DNA of 29,543 bases from Abditibacteriaceae bacterium (GCA_031425655.1 JANPJS010000100.1:1-29543), one strand, 5' to 3'. Shown: positions 21,901 to 29,543, counted from the stretch's first letter. Numbers and translations are program-made. The notes: generated from the letters alone by a model not told the origin.

Positions 21901-21993
21901 AGCGGCGCCGGTGGCGGCGCCGTTTTCACCTTCACGCTGCCGATTGCCGAAATCGAATCTGAGCCGCCTATTGTTTTGCCGGAATCATTGTGA
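18961..21993 (+). CDS. Sensor histidine kinase, CHASE2-TM-GAF-PAS-HisKA-HATPase
   Basis: CHASE2 (VAILAVDDET, DPDGRVR, VEIYATALDNML), GAF (GEGIAGWVAQTG, SVLCVPL), H-box VAHEMRSPLTSI, N-box NLIGNALKY, DEGPGI, GTGLGL. Confidence 0.93.
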   Translation: MARFFRKSQTQRAPGTSTGGAWRQGPLWGVVVGCLTGLATILMTAHHPLGARLQYDTLDFWFRLRDPALPRDVAILAVDDETVQRWRGRDFDAPEIARLLRLLKNYRVRATALAFPDLATMPQNAGGQKSLARALKNTGIGHLPMRFRDPKSPFLMKGGGVHVFGVGAPGDVLNLSPALSEFRGLRLDRPGEALLSHAAGAGFLNFSLDPDGRVREIPLLLPHGARFYPSLPLSVLLGSGRGMARRAVRFTDFSRHLVPPEHAELLLVGPREIPARAGALLLNFPTGSDAPFDGDARHDQMATSPSPFHTISVAAALDNPRLLSPLKGKAVVVGLTASGHAPLFQGPGTRRLSAVEIYATALDNMLTGRALRRAPAWLIWVLTLVPCGLIGGFVSSRRPAWSGTITVTSLAALALMSLGLFSRNIWLDITAPWLGGALAYLIGVIGRARRHERESTRVASTIEAVSQVSEVIAAQTQTTELLTRVLDWAMHLLDSSSAAALLLDDNQTELHFVAAGGPKSNEVMPFTVKIGEGIAGWVAQTGRTAIVNDVAHDTRFKRDIDQETDFHTQSVLCVPLRVRDKILGVVEVLNRADGQPYTAADAELLLAVANQAAVVLENARLYEMLNLRVEESESALQRTNRRLETERNLFSTILQSMTGGVIVTDAEGMVQLVNPAARRLLPDLAGWDDQAPARQISQLVPDYFLAEPGANFPPAPSELRRGDPDAPRLIAAQAAPLHATSDAREAPAGWIVVLDDVTEARQMDRAKSDFVSFVAHEMRSPLTSIAGFASMLQRNENLGNTASRSRFLGIIHGESERLTRLINSLLDVARIEAGRPIELNLEKLDILDVAQAACEAQRAYSSRHNIVCAVPPGLPLLLADRDKLTQILINLIGNALKYAPGGNVTVSARRAGEFLEISVRDEGPGIAPEQRRILFERFGRTPSRQPVTGTGAQAKPTGTGLGLFLTKHLVETHGGTIRVGSGAGGGAVFTFTLPIAEIESEPPIVLPESL

Positions 21994-22016: not shown

Positions 22017-22137
22017 TTGTAATGGAACACGGAGCTTCGCTTCGCGGAAACGACACCGATTTTCACAGGTTTTCCGTGAATTGATCCGTGAAAATCGGTG
22101 TCGTTTCCGCGAAGCGAAGCTCCGTGTTTCACTACAA
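22017..22137. repeat. Long palindrome with perfect 41-bp arms
   Basis: 22026..22066 is the exact reverse complement of 22088..22128, with imperfect outer extension. Confidence 0.92.
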
Positions 22138-22300
22138 AGCGACTCAACTCAGGATTAATGACTATTCTCAACCTGCTTCTAAGAATGGTTTGAAAGTAAG
22201 CATTCAGCTCGCCACAACTCCGCCGAAGCTTGGCGCGACGGTTTGCGCGAGGCACACAGGTTCACCATACAGATTTGCGGCTTTCATCTATGATTTTTGT

Positions 22301-22348
22301 ATTACGCCGCAAAATCCCGATAATTTGCGGCATAATTCAGAGTTGGGC
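22301..22348 (+). other. attI-like primary recombination site
   Basis: GCATAATTCAGA-GTTGGGC. Its core GTTGGGCCG is complementary to the CGGCCCAAC that opens the next attC, and no attC body precedes it. Upstream imperfect palindrome ATTACGCCGCAAA/TTTGCGGCATAAT. Confidence 0.55.
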
Positions 22349-22515
22349 CGCTGCGCCCGCGTGATGCTTTGGAGCAAGGTTGTTCGGTCGCTGATATTTG
22401 GTGGCGTGAAGCCAGAGTTGGCGGCGTCGGGTCGTGGGGTGCTGTGACTTAGTCGCTCTGGCGCAGCGTTCTGGGTTTCGGGTGGCGCGGCTTGGCGGGG
22501 TCAATCTCGACATCG

Positions 22516-22630
22516 GCCCAACAAGGCGCTGCACCCGACCGCCCGCAGTTTGGCTGATTCTCATTTTTGGTCGCGCTGCGCCAAACTTGGTCGCAATTCG
22601 GCGGGCGGCGGGTGAGCTTGGTCGTTCTGT
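22516..22630 (+). repeat. attC site 1 (115 bp, long variant)
   Basis: GCCCAAC-AAGGCGCTGCACCCGACCGCC...GGCGGCGGGTGAGCTTGGTC-GTTCTGT; imperfect palindrome with R''/L''/L'/R' layout. Confidence 0.9.
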
Positions 22631-22696
22631 CGCTTGCGCGCGGCGTTGCTGTAAGCGATACTGTGGGCGCTGTTCAAAATCAGGATTGAGGTTGAG

Positions 22697-24577
22697 ATGA
22701 AAACCAAAACAGTAGCTAACGCCCCCATCTGCCTTTCATTCTTACTTGCTCTTGCCAGCTATCCTTTTATCGGCCAAAGTCATGCGGACGAGGTATTGCC
22801 TCGTAAGCGCGGCTTTGTCGTAACACCTTTATCCTATAAGCTTCGTGAGCAGAATGTTGGCGCAACGATTCGATTCGCGTCCGATAATTCAATTCGACGA
22901 GATATTGCTGTTGCTCCCTCAGCCTATCGTCTGGCTGAGATGACTGGATACCTAATCGTTCTGCGTAAGCCCACAGCCGCCTCTGATGTGCCAGCCTATC
23001 AAAAGGTGCGCGCAGAGTTTATTAAAAGCGGCTACATTGCATCGCCAAGGCGATTTGATCGCACGTCTGAATTCCTAATTCCGCGCGCTTTCTTGGGCAG
23101 TCCTGACGAACTGGATACGTTCCTTGATGGCTTAGCCACAGAAGAGATTATTGAATATCTCTTTGATTGGGAAGACAACGAGTCCGGGAGCGCCGTTGTT
23201 GCCTCGGAAAATAATACTTTAAGGGAGCGAGAACGTAGCGCCAACGAAACATTGACATTTGTTAATGATCAACGCACCAAGTATCAAGCAGAGAATGAAG
23301 AACTCCAACGGCATATTACACGGGTTCAAGCTGAAATCCAAATCTTGAATCAGCGTCTGAGCGGACAGAATTTTTTGGCTCTTCGGTCAAACAGAACAAG
23401 ACTTTCAACTGTTTTAAACACACCTGAAACCCCGGCGCGCAAAGTGAAACCCAATCCAGAAAAGGATTTTTTCGTTCCTGTCATCCAATCAAACATGACT
23501 TCAATTGCCGAGAAGCCATATGATGGCCCACAGGTTAGCCAAAAGTATCTTCAGCCGGAACTGGTTGAAGCATTGGATTCGTTTACTGAACAAGAGAGTG
23601 AAACACTTCGAGAGCTTGGTCTATCTCCCTTCACATTAGCCAGCGGCGCGCGATCACCTTTGCAGCAGGCTGGTCTTAGTAATCCCGTTGCGTCGGGAAT
23701 GTTCTCTTCTGGTCACGTTTACGGTGTGGCTACGGATATTTCCATGCAAGGCGGCACTTCCATTGATCTTAAGCCTTACTACCATATAAAAGCGGGCACA
23801 GGAATCCCCGTTGCGCGTCCCCAAGACCTTCAAGCCCTTGATGTGCCGAACCCCCGGTTTTCCAGAAACCCTAAAATCGCTGCACAGCAAAGGGCAGCAC
23901 TCGCACAATATCGGCAAAACCGCAACGCCTACAAAAATGAATACAAGCGTCGGTCTGACAACTGGAAGAAGCTTGGACAGGCGATGGCACGGCACGGCTT
24001 AATGTTGCGATTGCCTTTTGACCCTAATCACGTTGATTTAGCCAAGTTTCGTCAGGACAAGAAATACGCAAATGGCATCCGTGTCAAAATGCTTTCTGGC
24101 TACTATAACGCGATGCAGAGTGAGCGCGAGGCTCAACTTCTGATAAAAGAAAAACTGAAAGGCGAACAGCGCGATCTCAACACCCGAATCCAAAGGCTTG
24201 ATCAACAAATCAGCGCCGCACAAAATTTGTTGAATGCCGCCAAAGCAGAAAAGGCGCGCCTTGATGCAGAGAATACCAAAGCGCATCGAGAATTGGATTT
24301 GATCCGAAAGGCCGTTGCTTCCCAGCAAGCCGCGAAAGAACGTTCCAATGGACGCCAGCGCGAGATATGGCGAGAAGTATCACGAGAGCGGGAACAGCCA
24401 GGTAAGGAGCGATACTGGGAGCGTTACAGCAGAGAAGAAATTCACAGCCGAGAAGCAGATCGTGATTGTTTGGAAGTTCGTGAATCCCGCCAGAATAGTC
24501 GTGGAGAATGGAGAAATTCAATATCAATCGAATGTCGCCCATCAGCGAGTGAACGTGGGATGTCGCGTCTTCCCTAA
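22697..24577 (+). CDS. Secreted coiled-coil protein with an M15 (Hedgehog/DD-peptidase fold) zinc peptidase-like domain
   Basis: GAGG RBS; signal peptide (..SFLLALASYPFIGQSHA); SGARSPLQQ, SGHVYGVATD (H-x6-D) and DPNH motifs flanked by two coiled coils. Confidence 0.7.
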   Translation: MKTKTVANAPICLSFLLALASYPFIGQSHADEVLPRKRGFVVTPLSYKLREQNVGATIRFASDNSIRRDIAVAPSAYRLAEMTGYLIVLRKPTAASDVPAYQKVRAEFIKSGYIASPRRFDRTSEFLIPRAFLGSPDELDTFLDGLATEEIIEYLFDWEDNESGSAVVASENNTLRERERSANETLTFVNDQRTKYQAENEELQRHITRVQAEIQILNQRLSGQNFLALRSNRTRLSTVLNTPETPARKVKPNPEKDFFVPVIQSNMTSIAEKPYDGPQVSQKYLQPELVEALDSFTEQESETLRELGLSPFTLASGARSPLQQAGLSNPVASGMFSSGHVYGVATDISMQGGTSIDLKPYYHIKAGTGIPVARPQDLQALDVPNPRFSRNPKIAAQQRAALAQYRQNRNAYKNEYKRRSDNWKKLGQAMARHGLMLRLPFDPNHVDLAKFRQDKKYANGIRVKMLSGYYNAMQSEREAQLLIKEKLKGEQRDLNTRIQRLDQQISAAQNLLNAAKAEKARLDAENTKAHRELDLIRKAVASQQAAKERSNGRQREIWREVSREREQPGKERYWERYSREEIHSREADRDCLEVRESRQNSRGEWRNSISIECRPSASERGMSRLP

Positions 24578-24606
24578 GTGCAATCTGTGATTACCGCGAG
24601 GCTACT

Positions 24607-25275
24607 ATGAACTACATTTCTCGTTTAGTGACTTTGGCACTTCTGTTTAGCATCAGCCTGTATGGGCAAGGCTCCTGCATTGCTCAACCATCAAACGCGC
24701 TCACAGGAGTGCCGGTCGGTTTTGTTATGGCGTTCCCTGGCGAAGAACAGGCTCTCTCTCCACAAAAGGCGACATGGATGATCTGCGATGGCAGGTCGTT
24801 GGTCATTCGACAATATCCGTCGCTCTTTCGCTGCATCGGTTGGACATATGGGTTGGGTAAAGACCCTCAGGGGCGCACTACATTCAACTTGCCTGATTAT
24901 CGTGGCTACTTCCTGCGTGGTGCTTCCGAGGACACTGATCGAGACCCCGATAAGAATGAACGAAAAGAGCATTTCACCGGGCAACAGGTCGGCAATTTAG
25001 TAGGCTCGAAACAAGATGACACGCTGCAAAGCCATAAGCACGACGATAAAGGGCATACGCATCCGACGGATGCTACAAACGCCAGAGGCGAAGTCCAATC
25101 TGACAACTCTGATGAGAGAGCGGCTCCACCCAGTCCACCACAATCCATTCCTCAAGTTGGCAAGGCTGATTTAACTGATCCAACCGATTCAGGTTCAGGC
25201 GCAGGGAAGCCTCGGCACGGCAAAGAAACCAGACCCAAAAACATTTATGTGCATTGGGTTATCAAGGTGAAGTAA
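24607..25275 (+). CDS. Phage tail-collar domain protein with N-terminal signal peptide
   Basis: PVGFVMAF..WMICDGRSL..YPSLFRCIGWTYG..FNLPDYRGYFLRG, GSKQ.D..QSH.H..H.H, ETRPKNIYVHWVIK. Confidence 0.9.
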   Translation: MNYISRLVTLALLFSISLYGQGSCIAQPSNALTGVPVGFVMAFPGEEQALSPQKATWMICDGRSLVIRQYPSLFRCIGWTYGLGKDPQGRTTFNLPDYRGYFLRGASEDTDRDPDKNERKEHFTGQQVGNLVGSKQDDTLQSHKHDDKGHTHPTDATNARGEVQSDNSDERAAPPSPPQSIPQVGKADLTDPTDSGSGAGKPRHGKETRPKNIYVHWVIKVK

Positions 25276-25350
25276 ATGTTAATTTTGCAACCAGCAAATA
25301 TAGACCTTGCAAAAATCCAAGAGAAAGCAAGTAAAACTGATTAACAAGCG

Positions 25351-25444
25351 ACAGAACAAGGCGCTGCACCCGACCGCCTACAGCTTCGCTCCCTCGTTCC
25401 TCGGTCACTGCGCTTCCGGCGGCGGGTGAGCTTAGTCGTTGGGC
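25351..25444 (+). repeat. attC site 2 (94 bp)
   Basis: ACAGAAC...GTTGGGC; CAAGCGACAGAAC is the complement of the cassette start GTTCTGTCGCTTG. Confidence 0.93.
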
Positions 25445-25484
25445 GGCGGCGCGCAGCTTTGTTGTAAACTCACAATATCAAGAA

Positions 25485-25817
25485 ATGCAAAATCGAAACA
25501 ACAATCTCGATACTTCACCCCACTTGTCCAAGCGCGAGAAAATTTCTCAGTCGTTAAGCTCAACTTCAGTGGTATTGTTTCTTCTGGGGCCGCTAATTTT
25601 CGGCGCTACTTGGTTTATAGCAAATCAGAAAGGTAATGTTCATGTGGCAAGCAATTGGCAAATCGGCCTTCAACTGGCGCTATTCTTTCCCGTCTGCGCC
25701 TTTCTGTTTGCGGTTGCCTCGCTTATAAAACCCAATATACAAGCAATTTTAATCATTATCGCAAGTATCATATTTGATTTTATGGCCCTCGTGTATGTCG
25801 CTCGCATCACAGACTAA
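25485..25817 (+). CDS. Cassette-encoded hypothetical membrane protein (3 TM)
   Basis: Single ORF filling a 481-bp cassette; stop codon 15 nt before attC 3; three hydrophobic segments. Confidence 0.75.
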   Translation: MQNRNNNLDTSPHLSKREKISQSLSSTSVVLFLLGPLIFGATWFIANQKGNVHVASNWQIGLQLALFFPVCAFLFAVASLIKPNIQAILIIIASIIFDFMALVYVARITD

Positions 25818-25832
25818 AAGTCACCAACCGCC

Positions 25833-25925
25833 GCCCAACAAGGCGCTGCACCCGACCGCCTACAGCTTCGCTCGTCGTTCCTCGGTCGCTGCGCTTCCGG
25901 CGGCGGGTGAGCTTGGTCGTTAGGC
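25833..25925 (+). repeat. attC site 3 (93 bp)
   Basis: GCCCAAC...GTTAGGC; near-identical to attC 2 and attC 4. Confidence 0.93.
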
Positions 25926-25961
25926 CGGTGCGCGATATGTTGCTGCGTGCCGTTCCATCAT

Positions 25962-25992
25962 GTTCATCTTGATGAACGCGATGTGTTACAAT
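25962..25992 (+). promoter_or_regulatory. Cassette-internal extended -10 promoter with operator-like palindrome
   Basis: GTTCATC-TT-GATGAAC (25962..25977) and TGT-TACAAT (25984..25992), ahead of the AAGGAGGTG RBS. Confidence 0.55.
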
Positions 25993-26023
25993 TATGGGGA
26001 ATTTCGTAGAAAAGGAGGTGAAT

Positions 26024-26224
26024 ATGCAACGTCTATTCAAGACCGGCAAACATTTGCTGGCCCGCGAAGAGGGCACCAACTCCGACGTGAAGGGTTCCCA
26101 AGAGAGGACAGTCAATCCTCCTGCCGCCGACATGGGAGATGGTTTGCAGGACTTAGGAGCCGCCGTCCAACTCACTAAGAATTCGCGCGGAAACAATGCT
26201 GAGGGAAATCGGGGACGCACCTAA
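26024..26224 (+). CDS. Lasso peptide precursor (A), 66 aa; predicted core NSRGNNAEGNRGRT
   Basis: Strong RBS AAGGAGGTG; leader ends LQDLGAAVQLTK (L-x-x-x-G-x5-T at -2); Glu at core position 8; directly upstream of the cyclase and peptidase genes. Confidence 0.85.
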   Translation: MQRLFKTGKHLLAREEGTNSDVKGSQERTVNPPAADMGDGLQDLGAAVQLTKNSRGNNAEGNRGRT

Positions 26225-26266
26225 ACACCCACACAAGAAGAGATTTGCATCATTGTGTTGGTGACC

Positions 26267-26311
26267 AAATAACGGAAGGCACTTCTCAACAAGCTGCCTT
26301 CCGTTATTTTT
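26267..26311 (+). terminator. Stem-loop / attenuating terminator between lasso A and C
   Basis: Perfect 15-bp arms AAATAACGGAAGGCA / TGCCTTCCGTTATTT, 13-nt loop, ending in a T run. Confidence 0.75.
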
Positions 26312-26333
26312 GCTACGGCTTCGGCATGGAAAT

Positions 26334-28178
26334 ATGGCTCCTCTACGTATTGTCCTTGACACTCAATCATTGTTGGATTCCTCATCGTCATCAATACGAG
26401 ATTTTGACGATATTATGTTTTGGCCTGTTATTGCCGGGTGGAAGAAACTTCGAGCAGTATCGTTCGGCAGATGCACCTTTTCAATTTCAAATTCATCGTT
26501 CAGTCAGTTCTCACGGACAGAGCACAGGAAGATAGTTGCTAAGCCAGAAAACATAACTCCCTTGCGGGGAGAGATTCCGCAAGAGGTGGAAGAATTAGCA
26601 AACCAAACACCTTTTGCCGTTTGGGATGAAACGCATAATCATCTAAGGTGCTTTTCCCATCCTCTTGGACGGGGCACCTTTTTTTACTGCTGGCTCAATG
26701 GCTGCCTTCTCATTTCAACCTCATTGCCGGACATCGCGACTGTTTTAGAAGACGTGCAACTTGATCGGCAAATGGTCTTGGAATACTTCGTCTTGATTCG
26801 CAATACCAGTTGTGACCAGAAGCGCACTTTTATCCGGGGGATAAACCAACTTCCACCGGGCCATTGCCTGGAATGGGTAGACAACGATTTAAGAATTTTC
26901 CCTTATTGGAGTCCTCAAAGCGATTCGCAGGTTGAGAAACTGAGTTTGTCTGAGGCTGTGGAATATGTGCGATCAGCAATCGAGAAAACCATAGACGGGG
27001 TGCGGCCAGTTGCTAAAGTAGGATGCTTAGTAAGTGGCGGTTTGGATTCAAGCGTAGTAGCTGCGCTTGTGCAGCAGCGGCAGAGAGCTATAGGAAGTGA
27101 TGCGATCCTGCTCACTCTCGGACACGATATTGACTGCCCTGAGGAGCGCCAACTACAACACCAGTTAGCTGAATATCTTCACGCAGAACTTGTCGTGCCC
27201 TCACAGAATTCCTCAAGGTTGCAACTTGAGCCACTACGCACGTTGAATAGTTCCGCTAATGCTCCCTGCGGCGGACTTTTTACTGGTATTTACACGGCAA
27301 TGATAAAGGCGGCGGCAGATCGCGGGATCACTGTCCTCTTTGGTGGTGAAGGGGGAGACGAAGTATTTACCGCAAGTCCACACATACTGGCAGATTTCAT
27401 TCTTAAACATGAGTGGGGAGCGGCATTGCAGGCCCTTGGATTCTTTACATCATTAGATGCAGATAGCAATTCTCTACAAGTGCTTGCCAGCGAGGGACTT
27501 TTGCCAATATTATCTTCCAGCCCTTCAAGAATCGGAAAGCGAGTCGCTTGCTTAACCGAGTCGTCGCTCAAGGGTAAAACACGTAATCACCACAACTTAG
27601 CTTTTCTGGCTCGACTTCTGGGTGAGTCTCCTGAAGAATTGAATGGAGTAAATGCCTACACAGCCGAGGATTTCTGTCATAGACGCGCGAGCGGTCTCTC
27701 TTTTGCGACATACAGCAGTTACCGACAGGTTCTTGAGATACCTTTCTACGAGGCTGCTTGGCCTTATTATGAGTGTGGGTCTGGAACCGGCGTCCGCATT
27801 GTCAATCCTTTAGCAGACGTTAATGTCTTTCGGGCAGCGATGTCGCTACGCTTGGATCAGCGAGTCGGGACGTGGGTGGGATTTCGGCCTAAGCGTCTTC
27901 TTCGCCTTGCCGCAGGGGATAGCATCCCGCAGGAATTGAGCTTTCATCCAAAAGTAGGCGTTAGTAATCTCGTAGCTCAGATGACACAAGGCTTGGAGGA
28001 CGAACTGATTGAGATACTCCGATCAGGTCGCTTGGAAGAAATCGGAATAAATCCAGACCCACATCTTAGTGATCCTCGGAATGTCCCCGCAAGTGTGTCC
28101 CTCTATTGGGCACTTCTGCTCGTCTTGACTGTATGGTTTGAGGAGTTAAAAAATGGTGTGGCACAAAGAAGGGGCTAA
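26334..28178 (+). CDS. Lasso peptide cyclase (C), asparagine synthetase-like macrolactam synthetase
   Basis: PP-loop LVSGGLDSS, LFGGEGGDEVF, TFIRGINQLPPGH, NPLAD, KRLLR, HPK; lacks the AsnB Cys1. Start uncertain (ATG 26334 preferred over TTG 26310, which lies in the hairpin T run). Confidence 0.88.
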   Translation: MAPLRIVLDTQSLLDSSSSSIRDFDDIMFWPVIAGWKKLRAVSFGRCTFSISNSSFSQFSRTEHRKIVAKPENITPLRGEIPQEVEELANQTPFAVWDETHNHLRCFSHPLGRGTFFYCWLNGCLLISTSLPDIATVLEDVQLDRQMVLEYFVLIRNTSCDQKRTFIRGINQLPPGHCLEWVDNDLRIFPYWSPQSDSQVEKLSLSEAVEYVRSAIEKTIDGVRPVAKVGCLVSGGLDSSVVAALVQQRQRAIGSDAILLTLGHDIDCPEERQLQHQLAEYLHAELVVPSQNSSRLQLEPLRTLNSSANAPCGGLFTGIYTAMIKAAADRGITVLFGGEGGDEVFTASPHILADFILKHEWGAALQALGFFTSLDADSNSLQVLASEGLLPILSSSPSRIGKRVACLTESSLKGKTRNHHNLAFLARLLGESPEELNGVNAYTAEDFCHRRASGLSFATYSSYRQVLEIPFYEAAWPYYECGSGTGVRIVNPLADVNVFRAAMSLRLDQRVGTWVGFRPKRLLRLAAGDSIPQELSFHPKVGVSNLVAQMTQGLEDELIEILRSGRLEEIGINPDPHLSDPRNVPASVSLYWALLLVLTVWFEELKNGVAQRRG

Positions 28179-29037
28179 CGCTCCGCTTCACTTGGACTCG
28201 ATCATAGAGCTTATGCCTTGCGTATCAGCTATTATAGACCGCAGTCGGGAAGAATCAGTTTTATTAGACGAGCGTAAAGGGCGATATTGGCGGCTATCGT
28301 CGGACTTATTGAAAGTCACTTTGCTATTAGGCGAGTTTCCTAATGGTCAATCTATGCAGGATATGGTAAGACATCTATCGGCACATGATGTCTCTGAGGA
28401 GTCTTTCAAGAAAGCTATTAATAATCTTAAGGCGAGTGGATTAATCAAAATCAGCATTAAAGGGACTGGAACCCATCTTGAAGACTCTTCAACTTTCGAT
28501 TTTGATGAGATGAGAACACGCAAGGGAGCTTTAGACCAACCTACTTTATCTCGTTCAAAGCAGCTAATACTACCAGATGGATGCTTGGAAACAGATTTCA
28601 AGCAACCCGCGTTAAGGCTCGTGCTCCATTATGCGCTTCTAAATTATTGGTATCGAACCGCGCTCCGCTTAAGAGGATGGGCACCTGTATGGGCTGTAAG
28701 GTCAAGACAACTGACAGACTCCGTGAGGTTGTTTACTGATGACTATTCAACGGGCAACGCAGCACGACCAGAAGTAATTGAAGAGGTTATCGCAGCGACA
28801 CGCTTAGCTTGTGTCTTTCCCTGGGTGCGACCTCGATGCACTCAACACTCGCTGGCCCTACATCATCTTCTTAGCAAAATGGGTTATTCCCCTAAACTGG
28901 TTATCGGGGCTAAAGTCCTACCGTTTGAGCCACATATGTGGGTCGAGCTAAACGGTTATAGAATTGATTCAGGGGTAGATGAGCAATCACTGGACGAATT
29001 CACTCTTTTGCTACCTCAAAAGAAAATTCAGAACTAA
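28153..29037 (+). CDS. Lasso peptide B protein, fused RRE (PqqD-like) and transglutaminase-like leader peptidase
   Basis: N-terminal VLLDERKGRYWRL..L..GLI RRE pattern; C-terminal RCTQHSLAL..LVIGAKVLPFEPHMWVE..D (Cys-His-Asp); overlaps the 3' end of C. Confidence 0.9.
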   Translation: MVWHKEGANAPLHLDSIIELMPCVSAIIDRSREESVLLDERKGRYWRLSSDLLKVTLLLGEFPNGQSMQDMVRHLSAHDVSEESFKKAINNLKASGLIKISIKGTGTHLEDSSTFDFDEMRTRKGALDQPTLSRSKQLILPDGCLETDFKQPALRLVLHYALLNYWYRTALRLRGWAPVWAVRSRQLTDSVRLFTDDYSTGNAARPEVIEEVIAATRLACVFPWVRPRCTQHSLALHHLLSKMGYSPKLVIGAKVLPFEPHMWVELNGYRIDSGVDEQSLDEFTLLLPQKKIQN

Positions 29038-29075
29038 GCGGTTGAAATTGGCTCACTCGAAGCCGACTAACACCG

Positions 29076-29167
29076 GCCTAACAAGGCGCTGCACCCGACC
29101 GCCTACAGCTTCGCTCGTCGTTCCTCCTCGCTGCGCTTCCGGCGGCGGGTGAGCTTAGTCGTTGTGT
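29076..29167 (+). repeat. attC site 4 (92 bp)
   Basis: GCCTAAC...GTTGTGT; CACCGGCCTAAC is the exact complement of the cassette start GTTAGGCCGGTG. Confidence 0.93.
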
Positions 29168-29221
29168 GGCTGCGCGCGGCTTGAATGGTCGCTATTATTG
29201 AAAAGGGGTAGAATAAAACAC

Positions 29222-29431
29222 ATGAGCGAAATTCAAGATTTACGTAACCGCGTCCAAAAGTTGGAAACCGAAATCTTGCAGTTGAAGAAAGAGCGCGACC
29301 CTAAGCTGGAAGAAAAGTCACCACAACTGACTGATGGACTTGCTTCCGAGCCTAAACCGGGTGATTGGGTATTCTTGGCTTCATTTAATGAGGATTTACT
29401 GAATAACTCACCTTACGCGGTCAGGCTGTGA
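29222..29431 (+). CDS. Cassette-encoded hypothetical protein (69 aa, N-terminal coiled coil)
   Basis: ATG about 60 nt after the attC 4 core; heptad pattern IQDLRNRVQKLETEILQLK. Confidence 0.6.
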   Translation: MSEIQDLRNRVQKLETEILQLKKERDPKLEEKSPQLTDGLASEPKPGDWVFLASFNEDLLNNSPYAVRL

Positions 29432-29543
29432 TAGAGGCCGCTGCGTGGTTGGATTTGAGTTCGTTGAGTTGTCGAAAGGCGGTTTGGAGGGCCGCTTGAT
29501 AAAGTTTGGCTTTGAGTGCGAAGTGATTGAGATGGGTTGCGAT

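Follow-up and report, generated by a model that had tools for sequence, protein, structure and literature searches.

A lasso peptide operon in a probable integron gene cassette of an Abditibacteriaceae bacterium

The window examined here, a stretch of 29,543 bp, is an entire contig (C100) from the 5.98-Mb genome of an Abditibacteriaceae bacterium, which is assembled in 327 contigs. Toward its end, positions 25920 to 29161 very probably represent a genuine integron gene cassette, the fourth of a chromosomal array (cassettes 0 to 3), carrying a complete class-II-type lasso peptide operon. The operon consists of a precursor gene (A), a gene for an asparagine-synthetase-type lasso cyclase (C), and a gene for a protein in which a probable RRE domain is fused to a cysteine protease (B). 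Two known kinds of genetic element, the integron cassette and the lasso cluster, are thus joined in one unit, and both the observation and its core interpretation were confirmed by the analysis. The boundaries of the cassette, the fold of its attC site, the link between its repeat family and an integron integrase (IntI), the gene families, the fold and catalytic residues of B, and the precursor pattern are all established.

Cassette boundaries and the attC array

The cassette and the attC that belongs to it are located as follows.

25920-29161, plus strand: cassette 3, the lasso cassette; 3242 bp, GC content 48.4% (genome 56.7%, housekeeping part of the window 58.5%)
29071-29167, plus strand: attC3, the lasso cassette's own attC; R'' at 29071-29082, crossover between G 29161 and TT

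An earlier note on this DNA had described a 3242-bp unit that is opened by a core site, closed by the complementary 12-mer and an attC, and free of attC sites in between, and these boundaries proved exact. The cassette starts with TTAGGCCGGTG directly after the G of the G/TT crossover at 25919, and the 12 bases GTTAGGCCGGTG at 25919-25930 and CACCGGCCTAAC at 29071-29082 are exact reverse complements. The second of these 12-mers opens an attC of about 92 nucleotides (nt), which ends at G 29161 and is followed by TTGTGT. A 24-nt attC core word occurs in four copies in the window, compared with 0.00 expected from 100 dinucleotide shuffles. We searched the whole genome with an attC profile built on these four copies and found 63 matches over 31 contigs, only four of which lie within the window (22508-22638, 25342-25454, 25825-25935, and 29067-29177) and none of which lies between 25936 and 29066.

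Four independent lines identify the repeats of the array as attC sites: the R'/R'' pairing, the circle-form fold, the link to an integrase, and the head of the array. The repeats, about 92 to 115 nt each, begin with a word ending in AAC and end in GTT. The 12 bases after the G of this GTT and the 12 that open the next downstream repeat are reverse complements of each other. This holds at 12 of 12 positions in all three complete cassettes of the window for which such R'/R'' pairs were compared (GTTCTGTCGCTT/AAGCGACAGAAC, GTTGGGCGGCGG/CCGCCGCCCAAC, and GTTAGGCCGGTG/CACCGGCCTAAC). Genome-wide, at least 10 of 12 positions match in 19 of 29 consecutive attC pairs, and 13 of the 29 have at least 7 contiguous matches from the G. 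Since the R'' words vary between cassettes, the covariation is cassette-specific and not the property of a shared repeat. Judged from sequence, this pairing is the footprint expected of units that were once circular and closed at G/TT.

The R'' of attC3 (GCCTAAC) and the R' in its circle form (GTTAGGC) fit the core-site consensus, RYYYAAC for R'' and GTTRRRY for R' with the crossover at G/TT, that is given in the accessible text of PMC5027507. For structure prediction, attC3 was folded as rebuilt in the excised circle, since the R' in the array form belongs to the next cassette. In this form the fold of the bottom strand comprises a 13-bp R box, an unpaired spacer of 5/4 nt, a 14-bp L stem, and a terminal loop, and two extrahelical bases of the L stem sit on the arm opposite AAC. 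The same elements (R box, spacer, and L box with extrahelical bases) are listed for attC folds in that part of PMC5027507. The bottom-strand fold has a stability of -30.8 kcal/mol (z -4.1, 200 shuffles) and the top strand is less stable (-28.6 kcal/mol). Compensatory changes are present in 7 of the 17 base pairs predicted for attC, in an alignment of 38 sites. Folds of the sites in their array form (z -2.6 to +1.6) were discarded as the wrong test, the R' there being that of the next cassette.

Only one protein in the genome is above the cut-off of the integron integrase model TIGR02249 (428 bits vs 265), and its homologues at about 60% identity carry the name integron integrase in their sources. 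Its gene is located on the minus strand of another contig (C103:4880-5845) and is followed on the plus strand by four attC of the same family as those in the window. The stretch between the start of this intI and the first cassette aligns with the head of the window array, an attI-like sequence of about 130 nt (22212-22342). Further attI-like heads are present at C211:16088-15923 and C193:54713-54567 and, more weakly, at C314:8150-8253; the weaker matches are uncertain, as they cover only the part that is common to cassette starts. These heads share the crossover sequence ATAATTCAGAG followed by TT, as well as repeated TTGCGG/CCGCAA words. A single integrase may therefore act in trans on several arrays with attI-like heads.

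The lasso cassette is the largest of 27 cassettes measured in the genome, with the next largest at 2814 and 2672 bp. The median is 722 bp (n = 27), in line with the earlier note's premise that cassettes usually hold one short promoterless open reading frame (ORF), and with the accessible portions of PMC5371416 and PMC5027507. The other features of the array, which begins at about 22200 and continues up to the contig end, are given below.

22212-22342, plus strand: attI-like site at the array head; crossover between G 22342 and TT; aligned with C103:5862-5992 and with the C211 and C193 array heads
22343-22624, plus strand: cassette 0; 282 bp, without notable ORF, closed by attC0 (22511-22624, followed by an R' tail of 6 nt)
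22625-25438, plus strand: cassette 1; 2814 bp, two ORFs (626 and 222 amino acids), ending in attC1; R'/R'' match 12/12
25439-25919, plus strand: cassette 2; 481 bp, ORF of 110 amino acids at 25485-25817, attC2 at 25828-25919; R'/R'' match 12/12
29162-29401, plus strand: cassette 4, incomplete; small coiled-coil ORF; runs into a multicopy repeat
29402-29543, no strand assigned: end of a multicopy element; the assembly stops here

The start of cassette 0, GTTGGGCCGCTG, has one mismatch against the R'' of attC0. The products of cassette 1 are a 626-amino-acid protein without known family and a 222-amino-acid protein with a phage tail collar domain (PF07484, 59.6 bits), and the ORF of cassette 2 encodes a hydrophobic protein. 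When six cassette proteins were scanned with PADLOC, the single match was a weak one of the 626-amino-acid protein to LmuB (E 6.8e-4), and none was found for C or B. Elsewhere in the genome, a cassette of 2672 bp (C243:15236-17907; L201:836-3508) has the same R'/R'' words as the lasso cassette. Its two ORFs, of 487 and 337 amino acids, are on the strand opposite to the array; the larger shows by eye an SPPY motif, as in DNA methyltransferases, and the two may form a restriction-modification pair.

Upstream of the array, positions 1 to 22000 hold ordinary chromosomal genes, including those for RNase Y, inorganic pyrophosphatase, a PASTA Ser/Thr kinase, an ABC-2 permease, and a CHASE2 histidine kinase, the last of which ends at 21993. 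Between this kinase gene and the array head is a palindromic element of about 120 nt (22017-22137, 50-nt arms, 96% complementary), dozens of copies of which occur in both orientations in this genome and three congeners. An ORF for an IS200-like (Y1) transposase of 179 amino acids is located at the contig start (58-597).

The A-C-B lasso peptide operon

The genes and expression signals within the cassette are the following.

25984-25992, plus strand: putative extended -10 element TGTTACAAT, read by hand and inferred only
26013-26018, plus strand: Shine-Dalgarno sequence AGGAGG, 5 nt before the precursor ATG, after a leader region of 92 nt
26024-26224, plus strand: precursor gene A; 66 amino acids, leader residues 1-52 ending in LTK, core residues 53-66
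26267-26309, plus strand: A-C hairpin; perfect 15-bp stem followed by a T-run
26334-28178, plus strand: gene C, asparagine-synthetase-type lasso cyclase; start uncertain (26310, 26334, or 26415)
28153-29037, plus strand: gene B; 294 amino acids, predicted RRE at about 16-102 and B2 cysteine protease at about 154-290

The gene content agrees with the claim of the earlier note (a precursor, an Asn-synthetase-like cyclase, and a fused RRE-peptidase), and C and B passed the Asn_synthase and Transglut_core3 profile searches that it had named. The C protein has homology to Asn_synthase (PF00733, 71.7 bits vs a cut-off of 21), and B has homology to Transglut_core3 (PF13471, 46.7 vs 26) and to the lasso B2 model NF033537 (51 vs 33); a 66-amino-acid precursor ORF precedes them. 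Genes C and B share 26 nt, and B has a separate ribosome site, GAGGAG. In an alignment of 35 B sequences, two rows of which duplicate the proteins from the two related loci described below, the catalytic residues Cys229 and His261 are present in all rows and Asp272 in 31. The AlphaFold model of B (mean predicted local distance difference test score, pLDDT, 83.6) consists of two domains joined by a disordered linker, and residues 16-102 in it have pLDDT values above 90. Among PDB structures, the best neighbours of this N-terminal domain are TbiB1, PqqD, TfuB1, and other RiPP-enzyme equivalents (RiPP, ribosomally synthesized peptide with post-translational modifications), with template modelling (TM) scores of 0.67 to 0.73 by target; the match to TbiB1 has a TM score of 0.73 by target and a root mean square deviation of 2.4 A. 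A search of PDB sequences with B returned nothing significant (best E 0.12), and a prediction of the complex of B with the precursor (score 0.19, mark 0.32) gave no verdict and is used neither way.

The C protein carries the ATP pyrophosphatase motif SGGLDS, and SGGxDS is invariant in 12 of 12 C relatives. The family is rare, with 11 relatives at 35% to 63% identity among 5.8 billion clustered proteins. According to Pfam, these 11 contain the synthetase domain only, while the true asparagine synthetases in the same list also have glutaminase domains. The next-best named matches of C are lasso cyclase models, far below their cut-offs. By these profile scores, C is not a member of the NF033535 or NF033561 subfamilies. 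It belongs to a small separate clade. Two relatives, P0340 (a member of the 63% cluster of the closest relative) and P0008 (47%), are on public contigs of 3164 and 3583 nt, sizes that would be expected if these genes were likewise bounded by repeats such as attC.

We examined two loci of C relatives, one in a Planctomycetota metagenome-assembled genome (L008, C 41% identical) and one on a metagenome contig (L089, 37%). Scans of genome and metagenome contigs gave one true relative each (L008 and L089) among the matches listed, and about 78 other rows per contig scan, among the matches listed, were ordinary asparagine synthetases. Both loci have the A-C-B order of the window with C and B overlapping, and small ORFs are present directly 5' of C, two of them in tandem in L008. 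These tandem precursor genes (L008:3799-4272) have nearly identical cores, one with an extra terminal Lys, and an ORF for a 316-amino-acid protein resembling enzymes dependent on pyridoxal phosphate is located directly 3' of B at the same locus.

Lasso precursors are characterized by a Thr at position -2 and an acidic residue at core position 7 to 9. In the alignment of four precursors from the three loci, T51 (position -2), G56, A59, E60, R63, G64, and R65 are invariant, so that Glu is found at core position 8 in all four. The predicted core of the window precursor is NSRGNNAEGNRGRT (residues 53-66, nt 26180-26221), and the aligned cores have the form (N/S)xxGxxAE(G/C)xRGR(S/T/A), with 14 residues in three precursors and 15 in one. 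Position 1 is Asn in three of the four (the window precursor and the two of L008) and Ser in L089. From the conserved Thr and Glu, the precursor is predicted to be cut after Leu-Thr-Lys, with Asn53 and Glu60 closing an 8-residue ring and GNRGRT forming the tail. A search with a precursor profile matched only the window peptide and the L089 peptide.

The hairpin between A and C (-26.3 kcal/mol, z -5.8) is more stable than any of 200 shuffles and is unlike attC in sequence. It was missed by the promoter and terminator scan because that scan allows loops of at most 8 nt. A hairpin of -32.2 kcal/mol is also present directly 3' of the L089 precursor gene, so its position is conserved and its sequence is not. 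Acting as an attenuator or terminator, the A-C hairpin likely determines how much precursor is made relative to the enzymes.

Several results weigh against the assignment of these genes to lasso biosynthesis. Compared with the curated lasso-cyclase models NF033535 and NF033561, C scores 75.9 vs 525 and 58.7 vs 300 bits, and the RRE part of B scores 20.8 bits vs a cut-off of 70 for NF033530. The Foldseek E-values of the RRE are weak, from 8.9e-3 at best to 8e-2, which we attribute to a query of two domains. With 14 residues, the core is among the shorter ones for a threaded lasso. To our knowledge, core position 1 is usually occupied by Gly, Ala, Ser, or Cys, a set that does not include Asn, and we know of no N-terminal Asn closing a lasso ring at that position. 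If the genes were not of the lasso type, C might be a paralogue of the amidotransferases and B might act on another substrate as a transglutaminase-like protease, as the scores of C and RRE under the lasso-specific cut-offs would allow. However, the B2 domain is above its curated lasso cut-off, the best neighbours of the RRE fold are lasso B1 proteins, the C relatives lack the glutaminase domains of the true AsnB matches, and at all three loci a small ORF before C is conserved, with Thr(-2) and Glu8. We therefore consider a role of these genes outside lasso biosynthesis very improbable.

From the lasso assignment we infer a course of maturation in which cleavage site, ring, threading, promoter use, and biological activity are all conditional. 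Translated from the strong ribosome site, the 66-amino-acid precursor would be bound at its leader by the RRE domain at the N-terminus of B. The Cys-His-Asp protease in the C-terminal part of B would then cut after Leu-Thr-Lys, and C would link the newly freed amine of Asn53 with the Glu60 side chain in an ATP-dependent reaction, closing the 8-residue ring. The 6-residue tail GNRGRT would thread the ring, with the arginines as likely plugs. The A-C hairpin would keep precursor message in excess of enzyme message.

Origin, assembly support, and mobility of the cassette

The two related clusters examined, at L008 and L089, do not appear to be cassettes. The attC profile had no matches at L008 or L089, and an inverted-repeat search at the cluster borders of these loci found no attC-like hairpin. 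A strict R''/R' scan of both loci also gave no candidates; its motif was too strict and rejected real sites of this genome as well. One 11-mer cassette-signature pair spanning the L008 cluster was rejected as a chance match, since it has no hairpin beside it and the same scan yields four false pairs in the non-cassette part of the window. In keeping with an accessory status, the C gene was found in none of 400 further genomes sampled from the phylum, three congeners (79% to 93% complete) among them, and no attC of this family is present 3' of the orthologous kinase gene in these congeners (stretches of 2.4 to 14.7 kb). Of 26 other genomes in the taxonomic family, 9 contain lasso B2 genes of the split type. 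At 12 such B2 loci (about 1.5 kb on each side), the attC family of the window was not found, in a search by which foreign attC families would be missed.

Since these two relatives have the same A-C-B order but no attC, the lasso operon is probably an ordinary cluster elsewhere that was captured whole, as a block, in this array. We considered whether the unit could instead have arisen from several single-gene cassettes that fused and lost the attC sites between them, as its unusual length (3242 bp vs the median of 722 bp) might suggest. The overlap of C and B by 26 nt and the absence of any internal attC remnant argue against such a fusion, the A-C hairpin has no resemblance to attC, and the order is the same at two loci without attC. 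A fusion is thus hardly credible as an explanation for this unit, compared with the capture of one operon.

Contigs of four public sequencing runs were compared with the window, one of which (X1) is the probable source of the assembly. A single X1 contig of 3194 nt spans 25905-29098 and includes both core sites of the cassette, at a depth of 9.47 compared with 9.75 to 10.2 for the flanks. The presence of both of its own ends on one contig implies that the lasso cassette is not a product of assembly. The X1 contigs do break at every attC, so that the neighbours of the cassette are joined to it through repeated attC, and this counts against its placement in the array. The cassette could in principle derive from another array or strain in the sample, since many other cassettes share these attC sequences. 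However, its two ends in one contig and its depth equal to that of the flanks make such an artefact improbable, and it would alter the address of the cassette and not its nature. In a sediment run from a different study (X2), the contigs contain cassette 2, with 9 differences over 25435-25861, and attC sequences, while the lasso cassette is not present; cassette 2 thus occurs in a second sample. The multicopy element at 29402-29543 matches the ends of at least 10 other contigs at 99% to 100% identity, with a depth of 124 to 216 vs about 10 in the source run. It is probably an unassembled insertion sequence that cuts cassette 4.

Whether the cassette is still mobile and expressed is less certain than its identity. 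No intI was found on the window contig by domain and integrase searches, including the 22 kb upstream of the array, and the window array is therefore an integrase-less array and not a complete integron. A consensus promoter scan found no site 5' of the precursor gene, so that expression of the operon may depend on read-through or be absent. The extended -10 element, which would place the start about 25 nt before the precursor ATG, has a poor -35, and this accounts for its absence from the scan. A CATAAT -10-like hexamer in the attI-like head points into the array from 3.6 kb upstream (TATAAT on C103). The cassette contains no transporter, immunity gene, or isopeptidase. No clean excision or circle junction was readable in the contig-level public data of the four runs. 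Skips of 3.1 to 3.6 kb in run contigs were rejected as evidence of excision, as they have short sides and come from other cassettes sharing attC.

These observations would be explained if the unit were a real cassette that has become a fossil within a decaying, integrase-less attC cluster, no longer excised and with its operon silent or transcribed by read-through only. Such a reading draws on the missing intI and promoter, on the multicopy element that interrupts the array after cassette 4, and on the unreadable excised-form junctions. On the other hand, all three genes are open with catalytic residues intact, attC and the 12/12 R'/R'' pairing are undecayed, and the genome encodes an intact IntI beside attC of the same family. 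In Escherichia coli, IntI1 still excised synthetic cassettes of up to about 3 kb, at lower rates and less often when a flanking site folds poorly, as described in the accessible text of PMC5371416. On balance we regard a fossil cassette as unlikely.

If the cassette is active, the single IntI encoded on C103 would act in trans on the folded bottom strands of attC2 and attC3, and a cut at G/TT would release a 3242-bp circle that could re-enter at any attI-like head. The broadest proposal, in which integrons move whole RiPP pathways and this one is active, excisable by IntI and able to re-insert at several attI-like heads across the chromosome, self-expressed from an internal promoter, and the source of a 14-residue lasso closed by Asn, is advanced only tentatively. 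The earlier note had likewise spoken of an integrase-mobilizable, self-expressing pathway; a minimal A-C-B lasso cluster in a single cassette stands, whereas its mobilization and self-expression are putative.

Implications and comparison with known systems

Integron cassettes are seen mainly as carrying resistance genes, small genes of unknown function, and lately defence systems. The cassette described here would extend integron cargo beyond single genes to whole small biosynthetic pathways, adding a new class of cargo, a pathway whose product would be a small molecule, secreted or bioactive. This points to cassette metagenomics as a possible source of natural products and to integron recombination as a possible shuttle for minimal RiPP pathways. 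The whole capture of an operon that includes ribosome sites of its own, a hairpin between its genes, and probably a promoter, and that has relatives outside integrons, also bears on how cassettes arise, as it is hard to reconcile with an origin from single-gene transcripts. The peptide belongs to a rare lasso family with a short cationic core and an unusual first residue, and if the contigs of 3.2 to 3.6 kb that hold the closest C relatives are cassettes as well, this family may be spreading as integron cargo. No RiPP, lasso, or other biosynthetic cluster was found as a cassette in the literature searched, a body of work outside which most subscription journals and supplements lay, and the words lasso, RiPP, bacteriocin, and biosynthe- are absent from a 2026 preprint on large-scale cassette recovery.

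Lasso clusters of the proteobacterial type with a fused B protein, as known from microcin J25, capistruin, and caulonodin, are the closest counterpart of the operon. The window operon resembles them in its A-C-B order, putative RRE-protease fusion, Thr at -2, predicted ring to Glu8, and hairpin after the precursor gene. In contrast, it lacks a D transporter and an isopeptidase, its core has 14 residues beginning with Asn (Ser in one relative), and its C protein is far from the curated cyclase models and belongs to a rare family.

The array itself can be compared with CALINs, which Cury et al. (2016) reportedly defined as clusters of attC sites without an integron-integrase. As in the accessible text of bioRxiv 10.1101/2022.09.11.507474, the window holds an attC array without a nearby integrase in a genome that also has a complete integron. 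Unlike the CALINs of that text, in which no such feature is described, the window array and several others in the genome are headed by an attI-like sequence of about 130 nt.

Multi-gene cassettes with their own promoters are known for toxin-antitoxin and anti-phage defence systems, in both sedentary and mobile integrons, according to the accessible text of bioRxiv 10.1101/2024.07.02.601719. Like those cassettes, the lasso cassette is bounded by attC, exceeds in length the common type with one promoterless ORF, holds several co-operating genes with probably their own expression signals, and is part of a chromosomal array. It differs from them, as far as that text describes them, in its cargo, which is a biosynthetic pathway composed of a precursor and two maturation enzymes.

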